NCBI GenBank assembly: GCA_046330995.1
Contig: JAXLRS010000003.1
Coordinates: 373,634 to 437,633, forward strand
Reading direction: 5' to 3'
Length of the DNA stretch: 64,000 bases
From: Dermatophilaceae bacterium
GTDB taxonomy: Bacteria; Actinomycetota; Actinomycetes; Actinomycetales; Dermatophilaceae
Each line of letters begins with the position of its first letter. Within the stretch, counting starts at the first letter, position 1. The notes beneath the pieces were generated by a model that worked only from the letters and a program-made list of their open reading frames with translations, was not told the origin of the DNA and ran no database searches. Both the position numbers and the translations under genes were made by a program. Below, one piece after another: positions 1 to 64,000 of the stretch.

Positions 1-484
1 CAGAGGCCCGGCCGGTCGGGTGCACATCGAGGACCTCGCTCAAATGCGCGGGTTCTACCCGAGGACGAATACAAGGGCAGCTTCGCGACCGTCGCTGCCC
101 TCGTCCACCGCGGACATGATCTCGAGCGGTCCAGTCGGTGACCCGGGCGCGGGTGGCAGCCTCCGCGATATCGACGTGGGCGGCGCCCTGGTGACGCGCC
201 TTGGCGACGGCGGCCGGGATCAGGGCTGTGCGTGCGGCCGTGTCGCCGACCGGGCCGGGATTGGACAGTGGCGGGGTAATGCCGACGGACTCGAACAACT
301 CCATCGGCCCCGGGAGCCGGGCTTCGAGGGTGAAGCCGTGGTCGGCCGGATCGGGGAACCCGATGGCGAGCCACAGCGAGGCAAGGGTTGGGCCGCACCG
401 GTTGCTAGGCGTCCCCTGGAGCAGAACCTGCGGGTAGTCGACCTGCGGCTCGACGTCGGTGAGGCCGCCGTGCAGGATCGCCAC
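1..484 (-). CDS. hypothetical protein, partial (runs off window start)
   Basis: Minus-strand frame from GTG at 484 shows strong G/C third-position bias down to about 130 (VAILHGGLTDVEPQVDYPQVLLQG...). Below about 130 the bias moves to a neighbouring frame, so a frameshift or early end is possible. No family recognised. Confidence 0.3.
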   Translation of the reverse strand, partial: MAILHGGLTDVEPQVDYPQVLLQGTPSNRCGPTLASLWLAIGFPDPADHGFTLEARLPGPMELFESVGITPPLSNPGPVGDTAARTALIPAAVAKARHQGAAHVDIAEAATRARVTDWTARDHVRGGRGQRRSRSCPCIRPRVEPAHLSEVLDVHPTGRAS

Positions 485-634
485 CGCCTCCTCCGGGGGG
501 AAGAGGTCCCCGCGCGGGATGAGTCGCCTGCCAGGTCAACGCGGCGGCGCGTTCAGCGAAGACCCGGCGCGCCGCGGCCGGCCCCGGCCGACGCCGATTT
601 CCTCCAGAGCCAAAATCGCGAGTTGGCTGAGGAG

Positions 635-1267
635 TCACGGCGCCGTCAGGAGAGCGCGATAGCGGAACGTCAGCGGCGAGCGCTCCGGGAAGCCGGGCAT
701 CGGGCCGATCACGCTGTCCACCACCGTGAACCCGGCGTCCAGCGCCAGCGCAATCGGGTCGCGCGTCAGGTGACAGCCGCCGCACACGCGCCGCTGCAAC
801 GGCTCCCAACGGCGTTGCCGGGAGGCGATGGCGGGGTCGTCACTGCGGCCGTGTTCGAGGAGGTGAAGGCTGCCGCCTGGCCGCAGCACCCGGCGGATTT
901 CGGCGAGCGCCACTCCGGGGTCGGGGATGGTGCACAGCGTGAAGGTGCACAACACCGCGTCGTATGCCGCATCCGCCTCCGCGAGTCGCTGACCGTCGAG
1001 CCCGCGGCGATGGACCGGGACCTCGCTGCGCTCGCGACGCCGGCCCGAGAGCTCCCAGGCGACGTCCGATGGCTCGACTGCGGCCACGGACGTCACATCG
1101 TCGGGATACCAGCGCACGTTCAGGCCGCTGCCGAATCCGACCTCCAGGATGCGGCCGGTCAGACCTCGGCAGGCCAGGGCGCGTTCGTCGCCGACGGCGT
1201 GGCCCTTGAGCGCCGCGTCCGTGACGCGGGGCAGCACGTGTTCACCCCACCAACCCATGGGGGACAT
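635..1267 (-). CDS. class I SAM-dependent methyltransferase
   Basis: ORF 635..1414. Likely start is MSPMGWW at 1267, just after the stop of the upstream MFS gene. SAM motif I ILEVGFGSGLN, then LRPGGSLHLLEH. Confidence 0.8.
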   Translation of the reverse strand: MSPMGWWGEHVLPRVTDAALKGHAVGDERALACRGLTGRILEVGFGSGLNVRWYPDDVTSVAAVEPSDVAWELSGRRRERSEVPVHRRGLDGQRLAEADAAYDAVLCTFTLCTIPDPGVALAEIRRVLRPGGSLHLLEHGRSDDPAIASRQRRWEPLQRRVCGGCHLTRDPIALALDAGFTVVDSVIGPMPGFPERSPLTFRYRALLTAP

Positions 1268-1275
1268 TGTCGTCG

Positions 1276-2478
1276 TCAGCGCGTGCGCATGTCTCGGCGA
1301 TGTTTGACGATCGAGAGCCCGAAGACCGCCAGGCCACCGAGCGCGAGCGCCGCGCCGACCAGGCTCGGGGCGGCATACCCATAGCCGCGGGCGATGACGA
1401 TGCCGCCGAGCCACGCACCGAGAGCGTTGGCGATATTGAGCGAGGCGTGACTACTCGCGGCGCCCAAGGTCTGGGCGGAACGCGCGACGGTGATCAGCCG
1501 CAGCATGACGGCGACCGCGAGGCAGCCGGCGACACACGACGCCAGAAATATCAGGGACAACGCCGCCACGAACCAGTGCGCGGTGAGCGCGAGGGCGACC
1601 AATACCACCGCCATCGCGAGCGACGACAACACGATCGAGCGCAGGATCGACCAATCGGCCAGTCGCCCCCCGACGGTGTTGCCGAGCAGGCCGCCGAGGC
1701 CGAACGCGAACAAGGCGAGCGGGACCAATCGCGGCGGGGCGCCGCTGACCTCGGTGATGAGCGGGGCAACATACGAATACATTGCGAACATCCCGCCGAA
1801 GCCGATGGACCCGGCGATGAAGGTCAGCGCCACCTGGACTGAGCCGAAGGCGCGCAACTCATTGCGGACCGAGGCGCCATCGGGTGCCCCTGTGCGCGGG
1901 ACGGCGAGCGCGATGAGCCCGGTCGCGGCGAGGGCGACGACCGCGACAGTCCAATAGCCGCTGCGCCAGCCGATCGCCTGGCCCATCCACGTCACCAGCG
2001 GCACGCCCACGAGGTTGGCGATGGGGATGCCGAGCATGACTCGGCCGACCGCGCGACCCGACTGGCCGGCCGGGGCAAGATCGATCGCCACGAGGGTGGC
2101 GACGCCGAAATAGGCGCCATGGGGCAGGCCGGCGAGAACGCGGGCGGCGAGGAAGGTCTCATAGGTCGGCGCCAGGGCCGATAGGACATTGCCCACCACG
2201 ATCGCGGCGGCCAGGCCGAGCAGGAGACCCTTGCGCGGGCGGGGCGCACCCCACGCCGCGAGGACCGGGGCCCCGACGACGACGCCGACGGCATACGCGC
2301 TGATCGCGTGACCCGCCTGCGGGATGCTCGCGTGCAGGCCTGCGGCGACCTCCGGCAGGAGCCCCATCGTGACGAACTCGGTGATGCCGATCCCGATGCC
2401 GCCGAGGATCAGGGCGATCGTCGCCACGAGGGCGGGCCGGGCCGGGGCGATTGGGCGGTCATACGGCACGGGCGACAT
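1276..2478 (-). CDS. MFS transporter (DHA1-like efflux permease)
   Basis: 400-aa polytopic hydrophobic ORF with a typical MFS N-terminus (GIGITEFVTMGLLPEVA, AYAVGVVVGAP). Confidence 0.85.
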   Translation of the reverse strand: MSPVPYDRPIAPARPALVATIALILGGIGIGITEFVTMGLLPEVAAGLHASIPQAGHAISAYAVGVVVGAPVLAAWGAPRPRKGLLLGLAAAIVVGNVLSALAPTYETFLAARVLAGLPHGAYFGVATLVAIDLAPAGQSGRAVGRVMLGIPIANLVGVPLVTWMGQAIGWRSGYWTVAVVALAATGLIALAVPRTGAPDGASVRNELRAFGSVQVALTFIAGSIGFGGMFAMYSYVAPLITEVSGAPPRLVPLALFAFGLGGLLGNTVGGRLADWSILRSIVLSSLAMAVVLVALALTAHWFVAALSLIFLASCVAGCLAVAVMLRLITVARSAQTLGAASSHASLNIANALGAWLGGIVIARGYGYAAPSLVGAALALGGLAVFGLSIVKHRRDMRTR

Positions 2479-2655
2479 TGTGCGCGGCTCGCGGGTTCGG
2501 CGCGCGCGCGGTCCGCGGTGGGATGCTGCCGCCTCAGTGGCGGCGTCAGGTGGCGGGAGCGCGAGGCGCGCGACGGCGGGCAGCCCGGATCAGCGCCATC
2601 TGCTCCGGGAAATCGGCGCTGATCTGGGGGCCGATCTCGTCGCCGCCGTGACCGG

Positions 2656-3781: not shown

Positions 3782-5092
3782 TCAGGGGTGCTCGCGCAGG
3801 TAGCGGCCGAAGTGAGGCACGGTGAAGGCGACCTTGCCGCGCTCGGTGGAATAGATCAGGCCCTTCTTCAGCAGCGCATCGCGGGCGGGGGAGAGGGATT
3901 GCGGTTGCTTCCCAAGCCATTTCGCGACATCGGCAGTCGCGACGGCGTCGAGTTCGATGGTCAGGCTCGAGCCGTATGCCGCAGAACCCGACTCGCTCTC
4001 GACCGGCCCGCCGACGACCGCCCCGTCGGTGTCGATGAGCGCGACCGCAGCCATCGCGCGCAGGTAGTCGCGCTCGGCGGGGGTGGCGCGTTCATACCGG
4101 CTGCCGAAGAAGCCGACGGCGAGTTCGGCCTCGGCGCGCGGGACGGCGACGCGGACATCGTCGGCGGTGATCGGAGTCGTCGGCGCGAGATCCCAGACCT
4201 CCCGGCCATAGGCCTGGATGAAATAGGGATAGCCGCCGGTCACGGCATACATCTGCGCCAGCGCTTCCGGGTCGTATGCCGCGTCCTCCTCCGCCGCGGG
4301 CACGGCGAGCGCCGCGGCGGCCGCCTCCTGGTCGAGCCGGTCGATCAGGGCGTATCGAAACAGTCTCTCGGAGTATGACTTCGACGCGGACAACACCGCA
4401 GGGAGGTGGGGGAGGCCAGCACCGACCACCAACACCGGAAGGGCCGCCTGGGAGATCTCGTGGCAGGCGGCGCACAGAGCAGAGACGTCCTCAGCCCCGA
4501 GGTCCTGCATTTCGTCGATGAAGATCGCGACGCCGCGCCCGAGGTCGGCGGCCAGGCCACCGATGTCGGTGAGGAGTTCGACGAGATCGATCTCAATGTC
4601 GCCCGAATCCGCCCGTCCCGGAACGGCATTCGCCTCGATCCCGGGATTCCAGCGGTCGCGCAGCTTGGTGTTGGGGGCCGTCTCGCGCTGGGCGAAGGAC
4701 TTGACGACGCCGAGGACGTGCGCGACCTGGTCCTCTTGCGAGTGGCCGAGTTCGCGCACGGCGACGTGGGCGGCGGCGGCGACGGGCCGGCGCAGGGTCT
4801 GGTCCGGGCGGGCCTCGAATTTCCCGGTGCCCCAGCCGGCGCGGACCGCCTGGCCGCGAAGGGCGTTGAGCAGCACCGTCTTTCCCACGCCACGCAGCCC
4901 GGTGAGGATCAGCGACCGCTCCGGGCGGCCTTTGGCGACCCGTTGCAGGACCACGTCGAAGGTCCGCAGCTGCTCGTCCCGACCGGCCAACTCGGGGGGA
5001 CGCTGGCCGGCTCCGGGCGCATACGGGTTTCGGATCGGATCCACGATACGGAGCGTATGCCGGACTCTACGGATTTCGGCAGAACCCGGCAT
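3782..5092 (-). CDS. AAA+ ATPase with C-terminal winged-helix domain (Orc1/Cdc6-like ATP-binding protein)
   Basis: Real part of ORF 3782..5770. NPYAPGAGQRPPELAGRDEQL, Walker A GLRGVGKT, Walker B IFIDEMQD, C-terminal wHTH-like tail. ATG at 5092 (alternative GTG at 5044). Confidence 0.8.
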   Translation of the reverse strand: MPGSAEIRRVRHTLRIVDPIRNPYAPGAGQRPPELAGRDEQLRTFDVVLQRVAKGRPERSLILTGLRGVGKTVLLNALRGQAVRAGWGTGKFEARPDQTLRRPVAAAAHVAVRELGHSQEDQVAHVLGVVKSFAQRETAPNTKLRDRWNPGIEANAVPGRADSGDIEIDLVELLTDIGGLAADLGRGVAIFIDEMQDLGAEDVSALCAACHEISQAALPVLVVGAGLPHLPAVLSASKSYSERLFRYALIDRLDQEAAAAALAVPAAEEDAAYDPEALAQMYAVTGGYPYFIQAYGREVWDLAPTTPITADDVRVAVPRAEAELAVGFFGSRYERATPAERDYLRAMAAVALIDTDGAVVGGPVESESGSAAYGSSLTIELDAVATADVAKWLGKQPQSLSPARDALLKKGLIYSTERGKVAFTVPHFGRYLREHP

Positions 5093-5138
5093 ACGAGGAA
5101 ATCGTGTCCGCAGCCGTGCCGTGCGCGAGACTTCCGGC

Positions 5139-5831
5139 GTGACCGCGCCGCTGGATGCCGCACCGCCCATTGCCGGCCTTGTCCTCGCGGCGGGCGCGGG
5201 GCGCCGGATGGGCGGCCCAAAGGCCCTGCTCACCCTCACCGACGGCGGGCCGACCCTCGTCGAACTCGCGGTCACCCGGCTCCTCGCCGGCGGCTGCCCG
5301 TCGGTCGTCACCGTCGTCGGGGCCCAGGCCGACACCGTCGGTCCGTATGCCGCATCCACGGGTTCAATCGTCGTCGTCGCCGACGACTGGGCGCAGGGCA
5401 TGGGCGCCTCCCTCCGGCGTGGGTTGCAGGCGCTCGAAGCGACGCGGGCCGAGGCGGCCGTCGTCACGCTGGTGGACCTTCCGGACGTCATCGAGACCGT
5501 CATCGCGCGCGTGCTCGAATCGCTCGCTCGCACAGGTGAATCCGACGATTCCGCGGGTCTCGCGCGAGGCGCGCCATCGGCGGGGACAGGGGGAGGTGGG
5601 TGGGCGACGGCGCTGGGGCGCGCGGCATACGGCGGGAAGCCGGGACACCCGGTGGTCCTCGGCCGCACCCACTGGCCGGCGGTGCTCGCCTCGGCGACGG
5701 GGGACCGCGGGGCGCGGGCCGTGCTCGCGACGGGCGCGACCCTGCTCGTCGAGTGTGGCGACCTCGCCACCGGACGCGACTGGGACCGGCGGACCGATCA
5801 GCCGCCCCGCTCACCCGGCGCGAGGTCGTAG
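5139..5831 (+). CDS. MobA/MocA-like nucleotidyltransferase (molybdenum cofactor cytidylyltransferase-like)
   Basis: GTG at 5139 in the frame of ORF 4518..5831. N-terminal LVLAAGAGRRMGGPKAL signature. Position directly upstream of the cox accessory genes. Confidence 0.7.
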   Translation: MTAPLDAAPPIAGLVLAAGAGRRMGGPKALLTLTDGGPTLVELAVTRLLAGGCPSVVTVVGAQADTVGPYAASTGSIVVVADDWAQGMGASLRRGLQALEATRAEAAVVTLVDLPDVIETVIARVLESLARTGESDDSAGLARGAPSAGTGGGGWATALGRAAYGGKPGHPVVLGRTHWPAVLASATGDRGARAVLATGATLLVECGDLATGRDWDRRTDQPPRSPGARS

Positions 5832-5967: not shown

Positions 5968-6855
5968 ATGGACCTGCGCACGGCCTACCCCGCGCCGGCC
6001 GATCTGGCCACGGCGCTGGGCGAGACCGGCTATCTCACCGACGAGGCGCTGACGACCGTCACGTGGCTCGCCCTGCGCCTCGGCCGCCCCCTGCTCCTCG
6101 AGGGCGAACCCGGCACCGGCAAGACCGCCCTCGCCGAGTCGCTCGCGCAGAGCACCGGGCTGCCGCTGATCCGCCTCCAGTGCTACGAGGGCATCGACGC
6201 GACGCAGGCGCTCTATGACTGGGACTTCCCCCGCCAGATCCTCCACCTCCGCGCGGTCGAAGCCGTCCACGGCGCGGCGCCCGACCTCGACGCCGTCGAG
6301 CAGTCGCTCTTCGGCGAGCGCTTCCTCCTCGCCCGCCCGATCCTCACCGCCCTGCGCGCCCCGAGCGTCCTGCTCATCGATGAGATCGACCGCGCCGACG
6401 ACGAGTTCGAGGCCTTCCTCCTCGAGGTGCTCTCGACCTGGCAGGTCACCATTCCCGAACTCGGAACGGTCACGGCCGCAACACCTCCGGCGGTGATCCT
6501 CACCTCCAACCGCACCCGCGAACTCCACGACGCCCTCAAGCGTCGCTGCCTGTATCACTGGCTCGATCACCCCGGCATCGAGCGCGAACTCGCCATCGTT
6601 GCGGCCCGCGCTCCCGAGGTCGACGCCGCCCTCGCGAGCCAGGTCGTCCGCGCTGTCCACCGGATCCGCGCCGACCGCGAGTTGCTCAAGCCCCCCGGTG
6701 TCGCCGAGACCCTCGACTGGGCCCGCGCCCTCGACGAACTCGGCACCCGTGATCTCGACACCGAGACGGCCGCGGCGACGCTCGGCGTGGCGATCAAGTA
6801 CCGCGAGGACGCCCAGCGCGTCCTCGACGCTCTCGACCGAGTGCTCACGCCGTGA
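5968..6855 (+). CDS. coxD: MoxR-family AAA ATPase, CoxD-like
   Basis: Real part of ORF 5155..6855 from MDLRTAYP. Walker A GEPGTGKT, Walker B LLIDEIDRA, sensor LTSNR. Confidence 0.85.
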   Translation: MDLRTAYPAPADLATALGETGYLTDEALTTVTWLALRLGRPLLLEGEPGTGKTALAESLAQSTGLPLIRLQCYEGIDATQALYDWDFPRQILHLRAVEAVHGAAPDLDAVEQSLFGERFLLARPILTALRAPSVLLIDEIDRADDEFEAFLLEVLSTWQVTIPELGTVTAATPPAVILTSNRTRELHDALKRRCLYHWLDHPGIERELAIVAARAPEVDAALASQVVRAVHRIRADRELLKPPGVAETLDWARALDELGTRDLDTETAAATLGVAIKYREDAQRVLDALDRVLTP

Positions 6856-7979
6856 CCACGGCGACCGTGGCTGCGACGAGGGAGCCTCGCGGCGGCACCG
6901 AAATCCTCCTCGGCTTCGCCCGGACCCTGCGGGCCGCCGGAGTTCCGGTCACCGCCGACCGTGAACGCACCTATCTCGAAGCCGTTGCCGCACTTGGGAT
7001 CGGGGATCCGGCCGCCGTCTACCACGCCGGCCGCGCCAGCCTGTGCGGGTCACCCGCCGACCTCGAGCGGCACGACCTCGCGTATGCCGCGTACTTCTCC
7101 GGCGAGCGCGGTGGCACCAAGCGCCGCCCCGCCCCGCCGCCGCCCCCGGTCGCCAACGCCGCGCTCGACTCCCAGCGCACTGGCGACCCGTCCGCACGGG
7201 ACGAAGCTCTCCGGGCCGACGCCAGCAGCACCGAGGTGCTGCGGCGGCGTGACATCGCCGCGCTCTCCGCCGACGAGAAACGTCGGCTCGCCGCCCTCTT
7301 CGGGGGACTCCGTCCGCGGGCACCGCGGCGGCGGGCGCACCGCCATACGCCCGCGCGGCGCGGCCCGATCGACGCCCGCCGCACGCTGCGCGACACCCTT
7401 CGTCGCCTCGGCGAACCCGGTGAGATCCGGCATCGCCGCCGCGGCCACCGGGCGCGCCGGGTCATCCTCCTCCTCGACATCTCAGGTTCCATGGGGCCGT
7501 ATGCCGATTCCCTCCTCCGCCTCGCGCATGTCTTCTGCCGCAGCGGGATTCCCGTCGAGGTCTTCACGCTCGGCACCCGGCTCACGCGGATCACCCGGCC
7601 GCTGCGGCACCGCGACGCCGACCGGGCCCTCGTCGCGGTCGGCGACGCCGTCGCCGACTGGTCCGGCGGGACCCGGCTCGCCGAGGGCCTCGCCGCGTTC
7701 CTCTCGCGGTGGGGGAGAAGGGGTCTGGCCCGCGGCGCCGTGGTCGTCATCGCCAGTGACGGGTGGGAGCGGGGCGACCCGGCCGCGCTCGGCGAGCAGA
7801 TGCGGCGCCTTCGGGCGGTGAGTCACGCGGTGGTGTGGGCGAATCCGCACCGGGGGCGGGCGGCATACGCGCCGGTCCAGGGCGGGATCGTCGCGGCGCT
7901 GCCGCACATCGACCACTTCATCGCGGGGCACTCGCTCGCGGCGTTCGAGGAACTGATCGAGGTGATCGCCGATGCGTGA
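6852..7979 (+). CDS. coxE: VWA-domain protein, CoxE-like
   Basis: GTGA overlap with coxD. MIDAS-type LLLDISGSM and the conserved CoxE C-terminus (WANPHRG...HIDHFIAGHSL). Confidence 0.85.
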   Translation: MTTATVAATREPRGGTEILLGFARTLRAAGVPVTADRERTYLEAVAALGIGDPAAVYHAGRASLCGSPADLERHDLAYAAYFSGERGGTKRRPAPPPPPVANAALDSQRTGDPSARDEALRADASSTEVLRRRDIAALSADEKRRLAALFGGLRPRAPRRRAHRHTPARRGPIDARRTLRDTLRRLGEPGEIRHRRRGHRARRVILLLDISGSMGPYADSLLRLAHVFCRSGIPVEVFTLGTRLTRITRPLRHRDADRALVAVGDAVADWSGGTRLAEGLAAFLSRWGRRGLARGAVVVIASDGWERGDPAALGEQMRRLRAVSHAVVWANPHRGRAAYAPVQGGIVAALPHIDHFIAGHSLAAFEELIEVIADA

Positions 7980-53318: not shown

Positions 53319-53330
53319 ACGGAGCGCATC

Positions 53331-54692: not shown

Positions 54693-54723
54693 CGTGTTCC
54701 GTCAACGAAGCGAGGAGATCGCA

Positions 54724-55455: not shown

Positions 55456-55533
55456 CGACCGACCGATCCACCAACCGGCAGCGGCGGAGTAACGACATTC
55501 GCAAGATCACCCCATCGGATCGATTCCGATGCC

Positions 55534-56034: not shown

Positions 56035-57388
56035 GCCTCACGCCGCAGAGGGTGGGCCGAACCGTGGCCGCGTCGGTCTGTGGGCTGGTCCACCTTCCGG
56101 ACGAGCCGTTGGATCTGGTGACCGAGATCAACGAGCGGGTCTTCGCGCCGCTGATCAAAGACCTGATCATCCGAGGCAACCAGGCTGCCTCATGGCACGT
56201 GCCGGACCCGGGCGCGACCGCACGGTATTGCGTCGTCATCGACATCGAAGCCATCAACCGGCTCCGAAGCGAGCCGGCCCGGGACCCGGAGCGCTCGGCC
56301 GTGGAGGCCATGCTCCGGCTGCTGGGCGCACCCAACGACAGCGAAAGCGAGCCGACGCTGATCTTGCTTCCGCAGTTGCGTCTTGCCGCCCACCTGACGC
56401 TGGCCGTCGCCGCTCTGTGGTGATCCACGTGTGGCGCCCTGACCGGCCGTAGCGCCTCTGGGCGAGGCTTGTAGCAGGCGACTGCATCCGCGACTGCGCT
56501 CATGATCGAGGAGCCCGTCGAGACGGAACTGGTCGGGACCGCGTGCGCGCGGGTGTAGACGTCGGCGAGGAAGGCGCCCGCCTCTCGGTCGTATGCCGAG
56601 ACCACGCCCGGCACCATCTCGGGAGTGAGCTTCTCGACAACGGCGCCGCGCATCTCCGCGCCAGCCCAGCCGGCGGCCCCCTTGGCCGCTCCCTCGGCGA
56701 CGAGGCCCGCGGCATGGCCCACCGACAGCGTGCTGAGATCGGTTGTCGAACCTCCTGGGACTCCCGCCTTGATCGTGCCATAGACGGCCTCGACCTGTGC
56801 CTTCGACATGTCATCGAAGTTGTCCGCCGCGATCGTCGCGAAATCGTGGACCTTGGACCGGTTCCCGCTGGCCAGGCTGAGCAGGTAGCAGTATTTCTGA
56901 AAGGCGGCCACTTCGGCGGCGCTCGGATTGGGATTGTTCCGGAGTTCCTTGCCCCACGCCTCGGCCCTGGCATAGGCCTGCGGGTAGTGGTCCTTGATGC
57001 CCGACTGCCCGATCACCTTCAACCGCGTGGCGATGTCGTTGACCTGCTGCTCGGTCGCCGGCTCATCGCGGCGCCATGGGTCATGTCGCCGAGGCGCCGG
57101 TGCGCCGCCGACGGCGCCGGTCGACTCACTCGCGCGGCGTTGCTCGGCCGCCTGCCGCTGGGCCTGGCGTGCATAGTCGTCGATCGCCTGGGCCAACTGG
57201 TCGAGGTGCCGGTGCTGGCGCTGCCAGTCACCGACCAGGGCCGACGCGTCGCGGCCGATCCACACTTCTTGGGCCCGGCGCAGGGATCGGTCCAGAGCGG
57301 ATGTGATCGACCTGAGGGCGTGCGCGGCTGACGTCAACTCCTTGGCGACGGACTCGACGACTTCGACGTCCATCCCGAGACGTGCCAT
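55889..57388 (-). CDS. WXG100-domain fusion protein with no stop codon of its own (3-prime truncated or chimeric)
   Basis: The N-terminal approx 95 aa form a helical hairpin with W-x-G (EVWIGRD). The sequence looks like a real protein to about 56450. Below that the ORF is the antisense shadow of the + strand genes. Confidence 0.55.
   Translation of the reverse strand: MARLGMDVEVVESVAKELTSAAHALRSITSALDRSLRRAQEVWIGRDASALVGDWQRQHRHLDQLAQAIDDYARQAQRQAAEQRRASESTGAVGGAPAPRRHDPWRRDEPATEQQVNDIATRLKVIGQSGIKDHYPQAYARAEAWGKELRNNPNPSAAEVAAFQKYCYLLSLASGNRSKVHDFATIAADNFDDMSKAQVEAVYGTIKAGVPGGSTTDLSTLSVGHAAGLVAEGAAKGAAGWAGAEMRGAVVEKLTPEMVPGVVSAYDREAGAFLADVYTRAHAVPTSSVSTGSSIMSAVADAVACYKPRPEALRPVRAPHVDHHRAATASVRWAARRNCGSKISVGSLSLSLGAPSSRSMASTAERSGSRAGSLRSRLMASMSMTTQYRAVAPGSGTCHEAAWLPRMIRSLISGAKTRSLISVTRSNGSSGRWTSPQTDAATVRPTLCGVRLMPAGSRRRVGRGPMAISRRSGRSPPATGLRRRCRRCSTPTTRRPRRR
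56052..56423 (+). CDS. hypothetical soluble protein
   Basis: Balanced composition (DEPLDLVTEINERVFAPLIKDLIIRG...). The overlapping minus-strand reading is Ser/Arg-rich shadow. GTG at 56052 or 56064. Confidence 0.5.
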   Translation: MGRTVAASVCGLVHLPDEPLDLVTEINERVFAPLIKDLIIRGNQAASWHVPDPGATARYCVVIDIEAINRLRSEPARDPERSAVEAMLRLLGAPNDSESEPTLILLPQLRLAAHLTLAVAALW

Positions 57389-58052: not shown

Positions 58053-58874
58053 CTAGTGCGGGACCTCACCGAGCCGGACGTATGCCGCACGCAACACCTC
58101 GACGAGCCCGTGACCGCCGACCATCAGCTTTGTGGGTGGCACCTGGTCGAGCAGGGCGTCGCTCGGCGCGGCGATCGGCATACGGGATGGCAGTGGTGCC
58201 TGGAGCGCGAAGAAGGAGTCGAGGCACTCGATGAGCGGCACGACGTGCTCGGCGTCGGCGGGTCGGTCGACCGGGTACGTGCCAGTGCGCAGCGCGGCCA
58301 GCGTCTCGAGCAGGTCCGCGCGGGTGCGCCCGCGCCACGCGAGGATGCCGAACGGGTCCTCGTCGAAAGACTCGGCCAGCAGATAGAAGGCGGCCGCGAT
58401 GTGTTTGCAGGGCACCGACCAGTCCGGGCAGGTGCAATCCAGCGACAGCGCGCCCGCGCTGGCGGGGAACAGCGAGAGCCCGACCGAGGCGAAGGCGTCC
58501 TCGATGTCTTCGGGCATCTCGCCGGCGAGGAGCCGCGCGATGTACCACGCGTCGCGCGCGAGCTCCTCGGTGACGCGCGCCCACGCGGATTTGTCGAAGG
58601 GTGTGACGGCGATTCGCACGCGATAGGGCCGGGCGCGGGTGCCCTGGACCCATGCGCTCACCGCCCCCGGTTCGATGGTGAGGTCGATGACCTGCCCCTT
58701 GCGGGCGTATGTGCGACCCCGCTGGAGGCGCGCGCCGACACCGAGCGACTCGAGCACGGCGATGAACCGCTCGGACCACCAGGTCTGGGCGATCGCCCCG
58801 CGTCGGCTCCGGGCGCGTATGCCGTCCGCGACCGGCCGCGGCTTGGCCGGGGGTGGGTACCAGCGGCTACTCAT
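58053..58874 (-). CDS. SWIM zinc-finger protein
   Basis: CTCPDWSVPCKHIAA SWIM motif. Overlaps the stop of the upstream SNF2 gene by 8 nt. Confidence 0.85.
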   Translation of the reverse strand: MSSRWYPPPAKPRPVADGIRARSRRGAIAQTWWSERFIAVLESLGVGARLQRGRTYARKGQVIDLTIEPGAVSAWVQGTRARPYRVRIAVTPFDKSAWARVTEELARDAWYIARLLAGEMPEDIEDAFASVGLSLFPASAGALSLDCTCPDWSVPCKHIAAAFYLLAESFDEDPFGILAWRGRTRADLLETLAALRTGTYPVDRPADAEHVVPLIECLDSFFALQAPLPSRMPIAAPSDALLDQVPPTKLMVGGHGLVEVLRAAYVRLGEVPH

Positions 58875-61800
58875 CGGTGGCGTCCTCGGCGAGGGCGAAC
58901 AGGTCGCGCAGCGCGCCCGTCGACAGTTCGGTCAGCCAGCCCTCGCCATCGGTCACGACACTGTTCGCGAGGGCCTTCTTGTCCTCGATCATCGCGTCGA
59001 TCTTCTCCTCGAGGGTCCCCACGCAGACGAACTTCCGCACCTGGACGCGGCGCTTCTGACCGATCCGGAACGCGCGGTCGGTGGCCTGGTTCTCGACGGC
59101 CGGGTTCCACCAGCGGTCGAGGTGGATGACGTGGTTGGCGGCGGTGAGGTTCAGCCCGGTGCCGCCCGCCTTGAGCGAGAGGAGGAACAGCGGTGGGCCG
59201 TCGTCGGACTGGAACCGCGTGACCAGCTCGTCACGGCGCTGCTTCGAGGTCCCGCCGTGCAGATAGAGGATCTCGGTGTCGAATCGGGCAGACAGATGCG
59301 GCAGAAGCAACTCGGCGAAGTCGGTGTACTGCGTGAACAGCAGGGCCTTGTCGCCCTCGGCGAGGATCTCCTCGACGATCTCCTCCAGGCGGGTCACCTT
59401 GCCCGACCGCCGGCCGATGGGCGAGTGGTCGTGGAGCAGCTGAGCGGGGTGATTGCACACCTGCTTGAGTTTGGTCATCGCCGCCAGGACGTTTCCGCGC
59501 CGCTCGATGCCGGTGCTGGTCTCGATTCGCCGCATCATCTCATCGACGACCGACTGATAGAGGGCCGCCTGCTCGATGGTCAGGCGGTAATGCTGCGTGA
59601 TCTCGATCTTCTCCGGCAGGTCGTCGATGATCGTCGGGTCCGTCTTGACCCGGCGAAGGAGATAGGGGCGGGTGATCGTCCGCAGCCGGCCGGCGGGCTC
59701 GGTCTCTCCGTGGCGTTCGATCGGCACGGCATACCGCGCGCGGAACTTCTCGGCAGACCCGAGGATCCCCGGGTTGAGCACATCCATGATCGCCCAGAGT
59801 TCGGACAGCCGGTTCTCCATCGGGGTTCCGGTCAGGGCCACGCGATGGCGGGCAGGCAGCCGCCGCACGGCCCGCGCGGCGCGCGACTGGCTGTTCTTGA
59901 CCGCCTGCGCCTCGTCGAGAACGAGCCGTTCCCAGTCGTATGCCGCGAGCTCGTCGATGTCGCGTGTGGCGGTGTGGTAGGTGGTCACGACGAGATCGGC
60001 GGTGGCCAGGTGGTCCGCGAGGTCCGTCCCATGGCAGCGTTCCCGGCCGTGATGCGGATAGAGGCGCAGGTGCGGGGCGAAGCGGGCGGCCTCGCGCTGC
60101 CAGTTGCCGACCAGGGACATCGGGCACAGCAACAGGGTGGGGCGGGCGACGGGGCGTTCGCTGCGTTGGTGGCTTTCCAGGGCCAGCAGTTGGATCGTCT
60201 TGCCGAGCCCCATGTCGTCCGCCAGGCAGGCACCCAGGCCGAGGTCGGCGAGGAACGCCAGCCAGGACAGTCCCCGGGTCTGGTAAGGCCGCAGGTCCGC
60301 ATGGAAACCGTCGGGAGTGGCGAGGGGTTGCAGGGTCCGTTCGGCGGAGCCCGTGAGCAGGTCGCCCAGGGGACCGTCGGCGTGGATCGCCATGACCGGC
60401 AGCGGCGTGTCGAGGTCGTCGGGATGGCGGGTGGCCAGCGCGATGACCTCGCCGACCGTCGAGGGGCGAGCGGCCTGACGGGCGAGGAAGTCCAGCCCTC
60501 GCTGCAGCTGGTCGGGGTCGACGACGACCCATTGGCCGCGCAGCCGGACGAGGGGCGCCTTGGTGGCGGCGAGCGCGGCCAGTTCCTCGTCGGTCAGCGC
60601 CTCGTCGCCGACGGCGAGCTGCCACGCGAAGTCCACCAGGGAGTCCCGGCCGAACCGGCCTCCGGTCACCGTCGAGTCGGTCGGGGTGGATGCGGAACCG
60701 CGCAGGCCGAGGCGCTGCCGATGCGACCACCAGGCCGGCAGGAGGACCCCGAACCCGGCCTGGTCGAGGAGGGCGGCTCGGCAGGTGAGGAAGTCGTGGG
60801 TGCCGTGGAGGTCGAGGGCGAGGGCGTCAGGGTGGGAGGTGTGCAGAGCATCGATGAGCGCGGGATAGATCGTGCTCGCCCGGCCGAGTTCCGCCAGGAG
60901 CAATTCGTCGGGGCGGCTCAGCCAGCGGGCGAGCCCGTCGCCGCCGCTCCACACCTGCTCCGCGGCCACGAGCAGGGTGGGGTCCTGCGCCGACTGAAGC
61001 CAGAACTCCAGCCGCCAACGGGGCGCGGGCGAATCAGAGGAATCGCCGAGGTCCCCAAGGGCGGAGTCGGAGTCGGGTTCCGCGAGGCGGAAGGTCAGTC
61101 GCGCCGGGCCGGCCGGCCCGGCGCCGAACTGGGCCCACGGCGCCAGCGCCTCGGCGAGGGCGGCCACCTCGTTGGGTGTGGCCTCGAACTCGGCCACCGG
61201 TGAGGTGAGGGCGAGGAGCCAGGCGTCGGTGGGCGGCATACGTCTCGGTCGTCGGCCGCGACGCGGCGGCGGCAGGCGAGTGCTCTCTAGACGCCGGCGG
61301 ACGACGGCGTCGGTGAAAGTGGCGGTCGCGTCGCCGACCAGGGCGGTGGGGCTCTGACCGGCCGGGTCGCCGGACGCGGGGGCCTCGGCGCGGCATACGG
61401 GGGGCAGCGCAGCGGAGAGTGCGGCGGCGACGACGACGTCGGGACCTTGGAGGACCGGGCGCCAGCGTGCCTGCGGCGGCGTGTGCTCATCGCCCGGTTG
61501 GACGTCCGGGAGCACCCGGCCGCGCTCGGCCAGATCACGGGCGAACGCGGCGATGTCGGCGAGGTGGTGCATGGAGACGCCGTAGCGGGCCTCGATGATC
61601 GGCAGGTCGAGGACGTCGAGCGCCGACCTCGGATCGACGCGGACCACCGGCACGGTCCAGGGCAGCAGGATCGGCGGCTTCCCGCTCTCCCGGCGAGGCC
61701 GAAGTCGCGGAACCTCGGGTGAGTCGAGGGGCGAGCGGCTCGTGGACGGCAGCAGGAGCGTGGCCGTGCCGGGTGCCCCGGTCAGGCCGGGCACCGCGTC

Positions 61801-61944
61801 GGAGAGGTCGGCGGGAGCTGCCGCGAATGGGTGGGGTCGGGCGCTGCGGACCGCCTGGCTGGGGCTGGTGACGGGCGACTGCGAGTCTTCGGCCCACAGG
61901 CACAGCCCCCGGGTTGCCGACCAGAAACCGTGGACCACCAGCAT
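58867..61944 (-). CDS. SNF2-family helicase (HelZ-like)
   Basis: ATG at 61944 (MLVVHGFWS) in ORF 58867..62706. DDMGLGKT, DEAQAVKN and the helicase C motifs (GGTGLNLTAANHVIHLDRWWNP). Confidence 0.9.
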   Translation of the reverse strand: MLVVHGFWSATRGLCLWAEDSQSPVTSPSQAVRSARPHPFAAAPADLSDAVPGLTGAPGTATLLLPSTSRSPLDSPEVPRLRPRRESGKPPILLPWTVPVVRVDPRSALDVLDLPIIEARYGVSMHHLADIAAFARDLAERGRVLPDVQPGDEHTPPQARWRPVLQGPDVVVAAALSAALPPVCRAEAPASGDPAGQSPTALVGDATATFTDAVVRRRLESTRLPPPRRGRRPRRMPPTDAWLLALTSPVAEFEATPNEVAALAEALAPWAQFGAGPAGPARLTFRLAEPDSDSALGDLGDSSDSPAPRWRLEFWLQSAQDPTLLVAAEQVWSGGDGLARWLSRPDELLLAELGRASTIYPALIDALHTSHPDALALDLHGTHDFLTCRAALLDQAGFGVLLPAWWSHRQRLGLRGSASTPTDSTVTGGRFGRDSLVDFAWQLAVGDEALTDEELAALAATKAPLVRLRGQWVVVDPDQLQRGLDFLARQAARPSTVGEVIALATRHPDDLDTPLPVMAIHADGPLGDLLTGSAERTLQPLATPDGFHADLRPYQTRGLSWLAFLADLGLGACLADDMGLGKTIQLLALESHQRSERPVARPTLLLCPMSLVGNWQREAARFAPHLRLYPHHGRERCHGTDLADHLATADLVVTTYHTATRDIDELAAYDWERLVLDEAQAVKNSQSRAARAVRRLPARHRVALTGTPMENRLSELWAIMDVLNPGILGSAEKFRARYAVPIERHGETEPAGRLRTITRPYLLRRVKTDPTIIDDLPEKIEITQHYRLTIEQAALYQSVVDEMMRRIETSTGIERRGNVLAAMTKLKQVCNHPAQLLHDHSPIGRRSGKVTRLEEIVEEILAEGDKALLFTQYTDFAELLLPHLSARFDTEILYLHGGTSKQRRDELVTRFQSDDGPPLFLLSLKAGGTGLNLTAANHVIHLDRWWNPAVENQATDRAFRIGQKRRVQVRKFVCVGTLEEKIDAMIEDKKALANSVVTDGEGWLTELSTGALRDLFALAEDATDE

Positions 61945-62347: not shown

Positions 62348-62476
62348 GCGCGCCCGAAGGTGGGCCCCAGCGGTGGCGCTGACGAAGGAAGCGCGCCCGA
62401 AGGTGGGCCCCAGCGGTGGCGCTGACGAAGGAAGCGCGCCCGAAGGGGGGCCCCAGCGGTGGCGCTGACGAAGGAA
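62348..62476. repeat. three tandem 43-bp repeats
   Basis: Units at 62348-62390, 62391-62433 and 62434-62476. Each begins with GCGCGCCCGAAGG, which is also the start of the adjacent tRNA fragment. Confidence 0.9.
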
Positions 62477-62477
62477 G

Positions 62478-62512
62478 CGCGCCCGAAGGGATTCGAACCC
62501 CTAACCTTCTGA
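62478..62512 (-). other. tRNA-Arg-like 3-prime fragment (att-like site)
   Basis: The minus strand reads TCAGAAGGTTAGGGGTTCGAATCCCTTCGGGCGCG (anticodon-stem 3-prime strand, variable loop, T-arm, acceptor 3-prime strand). No matching 5-prime acceptor or D-arm lies upstream. Confidence 0.65.
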
Positions 62513-62712
62513 TCCGTAGTTTTCCGAATCGCCCGGTCGGGGCGTCTGGAGCCGACCCGGCGCGCCTGCAGCCGACACCACGCGAGGACCCAAAGTACCA
62601 CTCTCGCAAGGCAACCGTTGGCTGCCGTGGCGTGACGGCTCTGGTCGTCTTGAGTCACCTGAACGTCGAGCCCGCGGGTTTGTGGGCCGTTTCTGGGCCG
62701 GCCCACACCTGG

Positions 62713-63177
62713 TCACCAGGGGTGCAGATGAGGCAGAAGGTGCCCCATCGCGGTGACGATGGCCCGTGCTTTCGGCAGGTCCTCGGCGATGTCATCACCG
62801 CTCAACTGCGGGCTGTCCAGCCGCGGGTAGTCGGCATCGTTGCGGGTCCGCCGCAGCCGTCCGAACGGACGCACCACAGCCCCACTTCGACCCAGCTGAG
62901 CGGCGACAGCCTCCTACACGGCGACATGCCCACCTTTGCTGGTCGCACGCAACCCCTGCACGGCCAAGACCGCGGCCATCGACTTGCGCGCCGCGGCATA
63001 CAGCAGGTCATAGCCACCCGCAGGGTCAGCCTCAGCCACGAGCTGGGCCGAGCGAAGATGCCGCTCGGCCTCCGCCAGCAGGCGCGCCGCATTCTCCGTC
63101 GACGCGGTGACGTTCTCGAGGTCGCCCGCGGCCAGCATCGCCTCGACCTCTTCCCGGCCCGTGCTCCACCCGGTCAC
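62713..63177 (-). pseudogene. HEPN-domain toxin-like gene interrupted by an in-frame TAG
   Basis: GTG at 63177. In-frame amber codon at 62914-62916. The same frame continues to TGA at 62713 and contains RRTRNDADY. Confidence 0.65.
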
Positions 63178-63764
63178 GGGCTTTCACCCCCGATGAGGGC
63201 AACCATCGGACGGGAGGTCACCGTCGCCTTGAAAGGGTCAGCGTCTGCCGCATCCCATACCTGGGGGCGCACGCGCCGTATCGACACCTCCCGACCCAGC
63301 CGCCCAGTTGCAGCCTGGGCCACCTCATCAAGCGCGTCCAGGTCGGCCGTGCCGACGACCAGCACATCAATGTCCCCCGGGACCGGGCCGGGTTGCTGGG
63401 CGTAGCGGGCCCCCCACGACCCGTAGATCCACGCCTGCCGCACCCCCGGCACCTCGGCCAGCAGCTCGCGCAACACCGGCACCGGCCCGAACGTCACCGC
63501 CATCAACGCCGCCAAGGGCCCAAAGACCGGGCTCTCGGTCTCGGCACGCACCAACCGCTGATTCCCCCGCTTGGTATGCCGCACCAGCCCGGCCTCCGCC
63601 AACCGGTCCACCTCACGCATCACCGTCGGACCCGACACCCCCACCGCCCGACCGATCTCCACCAGCGAGAACTCCTCCAGCGGATGCAGCATGATCCACG
63701 CGACGATGTCCCCCTGCGCGCGCGAGCGCAGCAGCGGTAGCAACGCCGGCGACCCTTCTTTCAT
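63174..63764 (-). CDS. wHTH plus nucleotidyltransferase (MNT) domain protein, antitoxin-like
   Basis: N-terminal ArsR-like wHTH, then GSWG...GDIDVLV nucleotidyltransferase motifs. GTGA overlap with the HEPN gene. Confidence 0.8.
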   Translation of the reverse strand: MKEGSPALLPLLRSRAQGDIVAWIMLHPLEEFSLVEIGRAVGVSGPTVMREVDRLAEAGLVRHTKRGNQRLVRAETESPVFGPLAALMAVTFGPVPVLRELLAEVPGVRQAWIYGSWGARYAQQPGPVPGDIDVLVVGTADLDALDEVAQAATGRLGREVSIRRVRPQVWDAADADPFKATVTSRPMVALIGGESP

Positions 63765-64000
63765 GAAACCAACCTTAGCATCACTTTAATGAAGGCTTGC
63801 GGCCGTGACCGGCGCAGCATCCTGAAGGCCAACGGCCGACTCGCCAGACCTCTCGCCCCCAATCGCTGGCACGGCCACCCCGCAGTGAGCGGAAAGGGAG
63901 ACGTGGATGTCCACGCGGCGACGCGCACCTAGTCGACCTGAGCGACGGCGCATCATCGGGTCCGCCGTAGGTCGAGCCAGGCCTCATCCCGGCGGATCCG

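Follow-up and report, generated by a model that had tools for sequence, protein, structure and literature searches.

An isolated, hyper-abundant octamer in the DNA of a Dermatophilaceae bacterium and of some of its relatives

The window, i.e., the whole stretch of DNA analysed here, comprises 64,000 bases (69.8% G+C) of contig JAXLRS010000003.1 from a Dermatophilaceae bacterium. Genes were called by a codon model trained on the window, which yielded 63 genes covering 86% of it; their starts are approximate. According to Pfam annotation about 50 of these genes have ordinary chromosomal functions: a CO/xanthine-dehydrogenase cluster with MoxR, VWA and XdhC, AmtB/P-II, glycogen phosphorylase, CbiMNQO, a thiamine-type ABC importer, LytR-Cps-Psr, PMT_2, a two-component system, phosphoenolpyruvate carboxykinase (PEPCK), DUF4386 paralogues and SNF2+SWIM. 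A ComP-type minor pilin or equivalent receptor is not present within the 64 kb. The subject of this report is a short word scattered through these genes, the octamer CGGCATAC, or GTATGCCG when met in the other orientation. On the forward strand GTATGCCG occurs 45 times and CGGCATAC 37 times, in total 82 copies or 1.28/kb. It is the top octamer of the window, ahead even of pure G/C words. A preceding sequence-only reading had estimated about 80 copies (45 versus 35) by eye; the twelve coordinates it gave as examples are all exact. It had also held that the core nearly always extends to the octamer, and 82 of the 84 copies of the 7-mer core do. The 9-mer CGGCATACG is reached by 55 of the 82 octamers (67%).

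The tens-fold excess over base composition which that reading had estimated is borne out by every independent null model. Markov models of order 0, 1, 2 and 3 predict 2.3, 1.3, 2.1 and 4.7 octamers on both strands; 82 are seen. A synonymous-codon shuffle within genes, which preserves the protein and each gene's own inflated usage of TAT and GCA, predicts 7.7 ± 2.7 copies versus 70 within coding sequences (CDS; z about 23). An empirical baseline of 1.16 Mb of word-lacking actinomycete DNA with 66-74% G+C contains 0.016/kb, word-bearing loci 1.01/kb, i.e., a 62-fold difference. The higher-order Markov comparison proposed as a check has two faces: orders 0-3 are far exceeded, orders 4, 5 and 6 predict 19, 56 and 75 copies. 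The latter figures are circular because the constituent 5- to 7-mers are almost entirely copies of the word; all they show is that the 7-mer already contains the full signal. When all 82 copies are aligned in one orientation, flanking positions carry at most 0.46 bits and only a period-three codon signal. No homology beyond the core exists in these flanks. A dispersed repeat family such as repetitive extragenic palindromes or miniature inverted-repeat transposable elements is thus ruled out, as the view of an isolated 8- to 9-mer had required. Restriction-site avoidance is likewise no description of the word, which is over-represented; only its transition neighbour CGGCGTAC and the palindrome GTAC are depleted.

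Might the abundance be an artefact that stems from codon usage, dipeptide usage, context-dependent mutation or a dispersed repeat family? The maximal-order Markov expectation is close to the observation (75 versus 82), and 79% of the coding copies share one codon phase. The former is the circular figure just described, in which 82 of 84 7-mer cores are the word itself. The latter is answered by the synonymous shuffle together with enrichment in both orientations and in every frame, which rules out a codon or dipeptide artefact; the flanks are without homology, and for 899 kb of CDS from other actinomycetes the same shuffle null returns about 1.0x. The artefact is refuted and retains practically no probability. 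CGGCATAC is an isolated, hyper-abundant word, and the original observation is confirmed.

Inside CDS there are 70 copies and outside 12, at a density of about 1.3/kb in either. The coding copies are read 34 times as G-TAT-GCC-G (Tyr-Ala) and 21 times as xCG-GCA-TAC (Ala-Tyr), which is one codon phase seen from two strands (55 of 70). The remaining 15 fill the other four strand-by-frame classes, i.e., Gly-Ile (with ATA), Met-Pro, Arg-His-Thr and Val-Cys-Arg. The assertion that the word is no by-product of one reading frame therefore holds for all six classes, yet one phase dominates. Intergenic copies, too, had been asserted; the 12 copies outside CDS support this, although several lie at gene boundaries or in an uncalled Gly-rich open reading frame (ORF). 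All copies are listed below with position, strand and context. Each is an exact octamer match, and "9-mer" marks extension to CGGCATACG.

962-969 (-): 9-mer; CDS 635-1237 (-), xCG-GCA-TAC, Ala-Tyr
1371-1378 (+): CDS 1276-2469 (-), G-TAT-GCC-G, Tyr-Ala
2289-2296 (+): 9-mer; CDS 1276-2469 (-), Tyr-Ala
3974-3981 (-): 9-mer; CDS 3782-5044 (-), Ala-Tyr
4243-4250 (+): CDS 3782-5044 (-), Tyr-Ala
4274-4281 (-): 9-mer; CDS 3782-5044 (-), Ala-Tyr
5055-5062 (-): 9-mer; outside confident gene calls, inverted pair with 5087
5087-5094 (+): 9-mer; outside confident gene calls, its CAT is an in-frame minus-strand ATG at 5092 for CDS 3782-5044
5345-5352 (-): 9-mer; CDS 5139-5831 (+), Tyr-Ala
5623-5630 (+): 9-mer; CDS 5139-5831 (+), Ala-Tyr
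7082-7089 (-): 9-mer; CDS 6852-7979 (+), Tyr-Ala
7499-7506 (-): 9-mer; CDS 6852-7979 (+), Tyr-Ala
7861-7868 (+): 9-mer; CDS 6852-7979 (+), Ala-Tyr
8555-8562 (+): 9-mer; CDS 7981-9102 (+), Ala-Tyr
8640-8647 (-): CDS 7981-9102 (+), Tyr-Ala
12023-12030 (-): 9-mer; CDS 9640-12174 (+), xGT-ATG-CCG, Met-Pro
12353-12360 (+): CDS 12171-13025 (+), xxC-GGC-ATA-C, Gly-Ile
12401-12408 (-): 9-mer; CDS 12171-13025 (+), Tyr-Ala
12709-12716 (+): 9-mer; CDS 12171-13025 (+), Ala-Tyr
13238-13245 (+): CDS 13030-13755 (+), Ala-Tyr
13689-13696 (-): 9-mer; CDS 13030-13755 (+), Tyr-Ala
14747-14754 (-): CDS 13869-15278 (+), Tyr-Ala
15424-15431 (-): 9-mer; CDS 15289-16641 (-), Ala-Tyr
15501-15508 (+): CDS 15289-16641 (-), Tyr-Ala
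15747-15754 (+): CDS 15289-16641 (-), Tyr-Ala
15930-15937 (-): 9-mer; CDS 15289-16641 (-), Gly-Ile
16874-16881 (-): 9-mer; CDS 16712-17896 (-), Ala-Tyr
18340-18347 (-): CDS 18302-19648 (-), Gly-Ile
18386-18393 (-): 9-mer; CDS 18302-19648 (-), Ala-Tyr
19660-19667 (-): 9-mer; outside gene calls, 12 nt upstream of the amtB-like CDS start
19788-19795 (+): 9-mer; CDS 19750-20880 (-), Tyr-Ala
20005-20012 (-): 9-mer; CDS 19750-20880 (-), Ala-Tyr
20724-20731 (+): 9-mer; CDS 19750-20880 (-), Tyr-Ala
21310-21317 (+): 9-mer; CDS 20929-22758 (+), CGG-CAT-AC, Arg-His-Thr
21348-21355 (-): 9-mer; CDS 20929-22758 (+), Tyr-Ala
21621-21628 (-): CDS 20929-22758 (+), Tyr-Ala
22692-22699 (-): CDS 20929-22758 (+), Tyr-Ala
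23823-23830 (+): 9-mer; CDS 22888-25458 (-), glycogen phosphorylase, Tyr-Ala
24759-24766 (+): 9-mer; CDS 22888-25458 (-), Tyr-Ala
25727-25734 (-): 9-mer; CDS 25577-26353 (-), Ala-Tyr
25913-25920 (-): 9-mer; CDS 25577-26353 (-), Ala-Tyr
26263-26270 (+): 9-mer; CDS 25577-26353 (-), Tyr-Ala
26992-26999 (-): 9-mer; CDS 26453-27031 (+), Tyr-Ala
27460-27467 (-): 9-mer; CDS 27098-27790 (+), Tyr-Ala
27580-27587 (-): CDS 27098-27790 (+), Tyr-Ala
27804-27811 (+): 9-mer; between the cbiM-like CDS and the next CDS
28257-28264 (-): 9-mer; CDS 28120-28872 (+), Tyr-Ala
28755-28762 (-): CDS 28120-28872 (+), Tyr-Ala
29776-29783 (+): 9-mer; intergenic, 22 nt upstream of CDS 29805-29978
30558-30565 (-): 9-mer; CDS 30516-31598 (-), Ala-Tyr
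31498-31505 (-): 9-mer; CDS 30516-31598 (-), Arg-His-Thr
32221-32228 (-): 9-mer; CDS 31592-33232 (-), Gly-Ile
32747-32754 (+): 9-mer; CDS 31592-33232 (-), Met-Pro
33993-34000 (+): 9-mer; CDS 33271-34236 (-), Tyr-Ala
35215-35222 (-): 9-mer; CDS 34604-35302 (+), Tyr-Ala
35337-35344 (+): intergenic, 9 nt upstream of the aroQ-like CDS 35353-35805
39338-39345 (+): CDS 39020-39433 (-), Met-Pro
40200-40207 (-): 9-mer; CDS 39438-41549 (-), Ala-Tyr
41808-41815 (-): CDS 41623-43086 (-), Gly-Ile
42213-42220 (+): CDS 41623-43086 (-), Tyr-Ala
43081-43088 (+): 9-mer; overlaps the histidine-kinase CDS start, minus-strand ATG-CCG supplied by the word
45323-45330 (-): in the uncalled Gly-rich ORF (44862-45797, +), GGT-ATG-CCG
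45359-45366 (-): in the uncalled Gly-rich ORF (44862-45797, +)
45648-45655 (+): 9-mer; outside confident gene calls
47318-47325 (+): 9-mer; CDS 46788-47420 (-), Tyr-Ala
47542-47549 (+): 9-mer; 5 nt past the PEPCK stop codon
48447-48454 (+): PEPCK, conserved Leu-Tyr-Ala-Val site
48928-48935 (-): 9-mer; PEPCK, Ser-Ala-Tyr site, common to locus L001 only
50790-50797 (+): CDS 50198-50911 (+), Ala-Tyr
51877-51884 (-): CDS 51671-52468 (+), Tyr-Ala
52222-52229 (-): CDS 51671-52468 (+), Tyr-Ala
53398-53405 (+): CDS 53331-54068 (+), Ala-Tyr
56591-56598 (-): 9-mer; outside confident gene calls
58080-58087 (-): 9-mer; CDS 58053-58874 (-), Ala-Tyr
58176-58183 (+): 9-mer; CDS 58053-58874 (-), Met-Pro
58817-58824 (-): 9-mer; CDS 58053-58874 (-), Gly-Ile
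59727-59734 (+): CDS 58867-61944 (-), SNF2 helicase, Tyr-Ala
59938-59945 (-): 9-mer; CDS 58867-61944 (-), Ala-Tyr
61234-61241 (+): 9-mer; CDS 58867-61944 (-), Met-Pro
61391-61398 (+): 9-mer; CDS 58867-61944 (-), GTA-TGC-CG, Val-Cys-Arg
62994-63001 (+): CDS 62914-63177 (-), Tyr-Ala
63574-63581 (-): CDS 63174-63764 (-), Arg-His-Thr

The Gly-rich ORF of this list is of low complexity, was missed by the codon model and contains 15-bp tandem repeats at 45397-45522. At least two word copies (45323, 45359) lie in it as Gly-Met-Pro, and the copy at 45648 is within its span.

The strongest single result is that the word nears saturation against codon preference. A site is permissive when the protein sequence allows the word, and 70 of the 115 permissive sites of the window (61%) carry it. 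Occupancy amounts to 81% at x-Tyr-Ala-[ADEGV], 55% at [APST]-Ala-Tyr, three of four at Arg-His-Thr and five of seven at [CGRS]-Met-Pro. TAT-GCC encodes 43 of 69 Tyr-Ala dipeptides; GCA-TAC encodes 23 of 73 Ala-Tyr dipeptides, though GCA accounts for 5% of Ala codons. Ala following Tyr is GCC in 59 of 69 cases versus 49% among all Ala codons. At such sites the rare codons TAT and GCA are imposed by the word. The TAT share of Tyr codons climbs with the match, from 0.52 before G to 0.70 before GC, 0.73 before GCC and 0.85 before GCCG. Even the proteome bears a mild imprint, the two word-encoded dipeptides being enriched 1.23x and 1.30x versus 1.0x and 0.84x elsewhere. Because orientation is balanced, all six strand-by-frame classes are used and copies exist outside genes, the force acts at the level of DNA and not of translation. 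CGGCATAC is an attractor word of double-stranded DNA; the force acts on the whole word, turns near-matches into it wherever coding permits and nears saturation against codon preference. The proposal of a genome-wide selected word is supported insofar as a DNA-level word under strong directional force is concerned. Overall, the sequence-only reading was right in its observation and partly supported in its interpretation; near-saturation of permissive sites, patchy distribution among genera and a one-letter sister word in another actinomycete family go beyond it.

The spacing of copies fits an exponential distribution (Kolmogorov-Smirnov p=0.96, coefficient of variation 0.96). Six close pairs with starts 31-48 bases apart compare with about five expected (Poisson estimate). 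The several word-free stretches of multiple kilobases do exist where they had been seen, but a maximal gap of at least 4,001 bases arises in 35% of random-placement simulations. They had been linked to foreign or rearranged DNA. This finds no support, given the exponential spacing, the genes in these stretches, which have only 0-4 permissive sites each, and the lack of integrase, transposase and phage genes among the annotated genes of the window. The second half of the window has 0.91 copies/kb versus 1.58/kb in the first, with occupancies of 54% and 64%; the lower density is due to fewer permissive sites (37 versus 78) and not to lower occupancy. No gene or region across the window has a significantly low occupancy.

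A few other features of the window are recorded here. AT-rich intergenic tandem arrays with a 22-bp unit are located at 22830-22886 and 30399-30459 and have a common core, GTCGAGAG[G/A]TCAAATA. A 12-mer, GTCGAGAGGTCA, occurs five times in the window. The whole could represent an operator or a small repeat family. A TPP riboswitch (34442-34546, minus strand; Rfam RF00059, 61.5 bits) is positioned upstream of the operon for a solute-binding protein and ABC importer (33271-34236 and downstream). The sole tRNA gene is tRNA-Ser (anticodon GCT; 38869-38961, minus strand). A 43-bp tandem repeat with 3.3 copies and 98% identity is at 62348-62489.

How widely is the word distributed? The survey drew on the 64 kb of the window and on about 125 kb from relatives, some 20 kb from each. 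The sole exact match of the window in the assembly collection is L081, a 13.6-kb metagenome contig of the same strain; it has the same layout as 50198-56034, where four DUF4386 paralogues in a row are accompanied by DUF4389 and DUF6326 genes. The PEPCK of the window is 86-87% identical to those of uncultured Dermatophilaceae or Actinomycetota metagenome-assembled genomes and 77-81% identical to those of Terrabacter, Intrasporangium and Ornithinibacter; relatives beyond 87% PEPCK identity did not turn up. Among octamers the word takes first place in L001, in L002 (1.47/kb) and in L007 (0.92/kb; a complete 3.9-Mb chromosome) and second place in L004 (Terrabacter, 0.60/kb). For L028 (Phycicoccus, 0.41/kb), where it has only 7-9 copies, the choice of null decides between first and second place. 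The five word-bearing relatives thus span 0.41-1.47/kb, and a further locus, L323, has 0.96/kb. The word is essentially absent from Ornithinibacter (none in 11.9 kb), Intrasporangium (one in 21.8 kb), L324, L325 and about 70 loci of other actinomycetes. Permissive-site occupancy is graded, 0.69, 0.63, 0.61, 0.41, 0.39 and 0.29 in word-bearing genomes and 0-0.05 in the others.

The PEPCK gene illustrates the situation. Its Leu-Tyr-Ala-Val site is CTG-TAT-GCC-GTN in six of six word-bearing genomes and TAC-GCC or TAC-GCG in the three word-lacking genomes which retain Tyr-Ala (L003, L005, L006). Among the few syntenic genes, shared permissive sites occupied in the window are occupied in 11 of 14 cases in word-bearing relatives and in none of four in word-lacking ones. 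In a neighbour-joining tree of PEPCK, a single-gene tree and indicative only, word-bearers appear in three places, each beside a word-lacking lineage. No alternative dialect word was found in the word-lacking sisters L003 and L005, where all candidates turned out to be ordinary codon words. The word is lineage-restricted and patchy within Dermatophilaceae: it is clearly present in Terrabacter and three uncultured or unclassified lineages, more weakly in Phycicoccus. Conservation in related genomes, suggested as a check, therefore holds for some Dermatophilaceae and fails for Ornithinibacter and Intrasporangium. The force on the word varies between lineages and is lost in some.

Viral scans for close pairs, which are of low sensitivity, detected no high-G+C viral contig with host-like word density, and the hits of the first scan were chance ones among the matches listed. 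The viral contigs L207-L322 (IMG/VR) have 116 direct pairs of CGGCATACG at 5-35 bases versus 7 convergent ones, about 16 times as many; these stem from short tandem repeats and from segments common to unrelated phages with a G+C content of about 50% and are unconnected to the actinomycete word. A protein search found no plasmids of word-bearing genera. A true dispersed repeat, unlike the window word, was encountered in the Nocardia locus L043 (11825-14321), where the octamer AACGAGAC has conserved flanks (ctccgtcgctccagAACGAGACgggccccga) and belongs to a repeated unit some 30 bp long; the units form inverted pairs.

The two orientations, CGGCATAC:GTATGCCG, are balanced everywhere: 37:45 in the window and 7:6, 17:15, 7:6, 10:10 and 4:5 in the relatives, in total 82:87 over six loci, and 11:10 in L323. 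For the window (45:37) a 70:30 skew is excluded. The only locus of known replichore position, about 0.53 Mb into the complete chromosome of L007, is the one with 10:10. Orientation is unrelated to local GC skew (41:41). Relative to the coding strand GTATGCCG is in slight excess (74:51, p=0.05) because the two main peptide classes differ in occupancy. Over the six loci there is neither a bias co-directional with replication, as in Chi, nor a skew towards dif, as in the FtsK orienting polar sequences (KOPS) and SpoIIIE recognition sequences (SRS). The balance excludes a strong polarity of the Chi or KOPS type and disfavours the classical polar recombination hotspot which the sequence-only reading had considered. 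A non-polar variant can be envisaged, i.e., a Chi-like site for AdnAB or RecBCD which attenuates degradation and loads RecA, both orientations being needed as two-ended breaks dominate. A non-palindromic over-represented octamer is the format of Chi, the word is present throughout ordinary core genes, and we know of no Chi sequence established for Actinomycetota. The lack of any strand skew speaks against it, and so do a density and near-saturation well beyond the modest excess of Chi. Further, the benefit per site would probably not suffice to keep 61% of permissive sites occupied in the face of codon bias, and close genera, presumably with the same repair enzymes, are entirely without the word. 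We consider a Chi-like signal unlikely.

A second peculiarity concerns Tyr codons as such. The TAT fraction is 0.46 in the window, 0.40 in L007, 0.32 in L002 and 0.24 in L001; in L007 CAT, AAT and GAT are all at or below 0.09, so the shift is Tyr-specific. Only TAT before A is exempt. In these four genomes the palindrome GTAC is also scarce, at 0.55-0.73/kb, a 3-4 fold depletion relative to four comparison loci without the word (1.65-3.4/kb, with 2.3/kb in the sister genera L003 and L005). Either the TAC-to-TAT shift or restriction avoidance may underlie this. The shift cannot generate the word because the predicted yield, when the TAT fraction is applied to the GTAYGCCG pool, is about 0.1/kb. 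Its cause could be low-affinity recognition, relaxed selection on word-forced TAT or a separate process.

These observations bear on an explanation by methylation or repair, comparable to the highly iterated palindrome 1 (HIP1) of cyanobacteria. A non-palindromic methyltransferase (orphan, Type IIG or Type III-like) or mismatch or short-patch repair would resolve near-cognate heteroduplexes or lesions towards the word, inside the cell and with no need for DNA exchange. Several findings are in line with this: the depletion of GTAC and a TAC-to-TAT shift which in the same loci is strongest before G; the main feeder change, a CpG transition from GTACGCCG to GTATGCCG, with that neighbour five-fold depleted; and a patchiness at genus level typical of mobile modification genes. 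HIP1 supplies the precedent of a hyper-abundant octamer tied to methylases (PMC4390886, PMC5861425). A deamination hotspot alone, however, predicts roughly 20% Tyr-Ala occupancy, estimated from codon frequencies, versus the 81% seen, and leaves the fixed flanking synonymous positions unexplained. Symmetric methylation of GTAC or CGTACG would make CGGCGTAT as frequent as CGGCATAC, but CGGCGTAT is found six times versus 5.8 expected. With flanks fixed and CGGCGTAT not enriched, a pure 5-methylcytosine deamination hotspot at GTACGCCG as sole cause is ruled out; it fails also on quantity, as CGGCATAC at 1.0/kb is about five times the CGGCGTAC pool of word-lacking actinomycete DNA (0.2/kb). Known Vsr-type repair restores C rather than creating T. 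L004 and L028 bear the word without the TAT shift or a strong GTAC depletion, i.e., the shift is separable from the word, and a DNA-specificity methyltransferase was not seen in the window. The earlier suggestion of a methylase or binding-protein site is possible, and the methylation or repair explanation, though rather improbable in our estimate, comes second in rank.

The tolerance of the word points to a protein. Against the empirical baseline the transition neighbour CGGCGTAC is five-fold depleted (P about 1e-8), whereas variants at position 3 are enriched, CGCCATAC 14x, CGTCATAC 6x and CGACATAC 3.5x. All eight positions are read, position 3 least strictly; the profile is CG-N-C-A-TAC, and the ninth base is weakly biased to G. 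The graded effects at position 3 and in the context of TAT argue for position-weighted protein recognition and against single-base context mutation.

An unbiased scan, in which each high-G+C locus was compared with its own synonymous-shuffle null, had background top scores of z = 4-6 and two families of outliers. One is CGGCATAC in Dermatophilaceae loci (z = 7-21). The other is CGGCGTAC in a Nocardioides-type clade, with 31 copies versus 5 expected in L010 (z about 12), z = 8 in L022, 6.9 in L013 and 5.4 in L029; L011 and L328 carry it as well, and densities reach 1.42/kb. Pooled enrichment over the shuffle null follows, where R is G in the Nocardioides-type clade and A in the word-bearing Dermatophilaceae.

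CGGC-R-TAC: Nocardioides-type clade 4.4x; word-bearing Dermatophilaceae 9.6x
CGCC-R-TAC: Nocardioides-type clade 3.5x; word-bearing Dermatophilaceae 4.5x
CGTC-R-TAC: Nocardioides-type clade 2.1x; word-bearing Dermatophilaceae 2.4x
CGAC-R-TAC: Nocardioides-type clade 2.3x; word-bearing Dermatophilaceae 0.7x
CCGCGTAC: Nocardioides-type clade 1 versus 15.7 expected; word-bearing Dermatophilaceae 1 versus 15.5 expected

In Dermatophilaceae three of the four versions with G at position 5 are reduced to 0.2-0.4x, and CGACGTAC stands at 0.9x. The eight CG-N-C-R-TAC words lie between 0.4x and 1.3x in the 899 kb of other actinomycete CDS; there the two main words are at 1.0x and 1.2x, by which the shuffle null is calibrated. 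In the Nocardioides-type clade CGGCGTAC is enriched in all six strand-by-frame classes and is therefore also a DNA-level word. Classes which need the rare codons CGT and GTA have 7 of 22 sites occupied versus 0.6 expected and 10 of 36 versus 0.5, and in other actinomycetes the two main CGGCGTAC classes are at expectation. A mere codon effect is ruled out by the shuffle null and the six classes. Nor is CGGCGTAC a palindromic site: five of 95 copies extend to the 12-mer palindrome CGGCGTACGCCG, and orientation is 52:43. As the two words are one transition apart and have the order G > C > T at position 3 in common, independence is unlikely. They look like dialects of one recognition system, and we infer that the two systems are homologous.

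Which protein might read the word? If the word were bound by an abundant nucleoid-associated or chromosome-organising protein and its copies were kept by ordinary selection, this would account for strand-symmetric, evenly scattered copies of exponential spacing and for the graded, position-specific profile. At thousands of sites selection would then have to outweigh codon bias, sister genera manage without the word, and no nucleoid protein is known to us whose site is a non-palindromic 8-mer at about 1/kb. We regard this as quite improbable.

Our preferred, if tentative, explanation is a self-DNA tag for exchange between cells, recognised by a protein and amplified by a drive acting on the whole word, by analogy with the uptake signal sequences (USS) and DNA uptake sequences (DUS) of Gram-negative bacteria. 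It ranks first because ordinary selection on thousands of dispensable sites can hardly generate such strength. In the drive model proposed for uptake sequences the recognition step itself biases which alleles spread. A sequence-specific factor would read the word, either at uptake by the recipient (natural transformation) or at export or transfer by the donor, e.g., through a TraB-like system. Fragments which carry the word would be exchanged preferentially and recombined into the homologous locus of the recipient. Alleles gaining the word would spread and those losing it would be replaced. The recogniser would differ in specificity by lineage, preferring A at position 5 in some Dermatophilaceae and G in the Nocardioides-type clade; where it was lost, the word would decay back to preferred codons. 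Extended to the phylum, the proposal would be that Actinomycetota possess an unrecognised self-DNA exchange or recognition system whose 8-bp tag, CGGC-R-TAC, approaches saturation in several families, with dialects that differ from one family to another. This extension is conceivable but doubtful.

Several points weigh against an exchange tag. To our knowledge sequence-specific uptake is confined to Gram-negative families, and a report of competence or uptake specificity in these genera was not found in the open-access and bioRxiv literature. Terminators built from inverted pairs as in Neisseria are missing, the only intergenic inverted pair being 5055/5087 between divergent genes, and intergenic DNA is not enriched. 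The distribution is patchier than that of DUS. The TAC-to-TAT shift covers contexts unlike the word (C-TAT-C 0.43), which the model does not predict, and the occupancy figures depend on the codon-model gene calls.

Were the tag real, sequence-biased gene flow, so far on record only from Pasteurellaceae and Neisseriaceae, would also shape high-G+C Gram-positive genomes. A signal of the uptake or transfer type would thereby be found for the first time outside Gram-negative bacteria, or else the word would be a new genome-wide self mark. As dialects differ between lineages, it would also serve as a built-in marker of species barriers. The word added to constructs might improve genetic manipulation of Dermatophilaceae, a family to which the Tetrasphaera-type polyphosphate accumulators of wastewater plants belong (PMC9123174); in their own hosts HIP1 and DUS already aid manipulation (bioRxiv 10.1101/2024.09.10.611283; PMC3630211). 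Irrespective of mechanism the word explains a puzzling codon usage, TAT up to 46% of Tyr codons at 70% G+C, and provides a sharp compositional marker for contig binning and for dating acquired DNA. With word-bearing and word-lacking sister genera at hand the responsible gene can be sought by phyletic profiling. The sequence-only reading did not recognise the word as a described motif, and indeed no prior description of either word, beyond primers and adapters, was found in open-access papers, bioRxiv or two oligonucleotide surveys. It appears to be undescribed in the phylum.

Among known systems, KOPS, SRS and the TraB recognition sequences (TRS) of actinomycete conjugative plasmids resemble the word in having eight asymmetric bases. 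SRS and TRS are 8-bp words read by a winged-helix gamma domain, and TRS are clustered in plasmid clt loci and are not known to be hyper-abundant on chromosomes. KOPS has the same 8-bp format, read by the gamma domain of FtsK (PMC3384302). TraB-type conjugation is widespread in actinomycetes, and a donor-side transfer bias is possible in principle. KOPS and SRS are strongly skewed, switching at dif, which the window word is not, and there is no sequence similarity to any of the three. Chi, too, is an over-represented asymmetric 5- to 8-mer scattered in core genes, yet it is co-oriented with replication whereas the window word is unskewed in every locus.

HIP1 (GCGATCGC) is likewise a hyper-abundant octamer situated in genes and maintained beyond codon usage, 15- to 300-fold over-represented, absent in some lineages and debated in function for decades (PMC5861425, PMC4390886). 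As described there, HIP1 is palindromic, contains known methyltransferase sites and is quasi-periodic. In contrast, CGGCATAC is not its own reverse complement, has no known link to a methylase and is spaced exponentially.

The comparison with the 9-mer core of the USS in Pasteurellaceae and the 10- to 12-mer DUS of Neisseriaceae is the closest, and an uptake-like role, here assigned by analogy, would fit best among the candidate functions. The host differs, being a Gram-positive actinomycete. USS frames correlate with preferred codons (PMC2817400), whereas the main frames of the window word force the non-preferred TAT and GCA; DUS, for which dialects are described, tracks the phylogeny of Neisseriaceae (PMC3630211), whereas the window word is patchy between sister genera. 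The tripeptides encoded by uptake sequences become about twice as frequent (PMC2817400), and a mild imprint on peptide frequencies is found here as well. All are short, non-palindromic and over-represented at about 1/kb (PMC2817400, PMC3630211, PMC3458573). They have equally frequent orientations without strand polarity, are mostly intragenic with preferred reading frames, tolerate changes in a position-specific manner, and have near-identical, lineage-specific variants in related taxa while being absent from relatives which lack the system.

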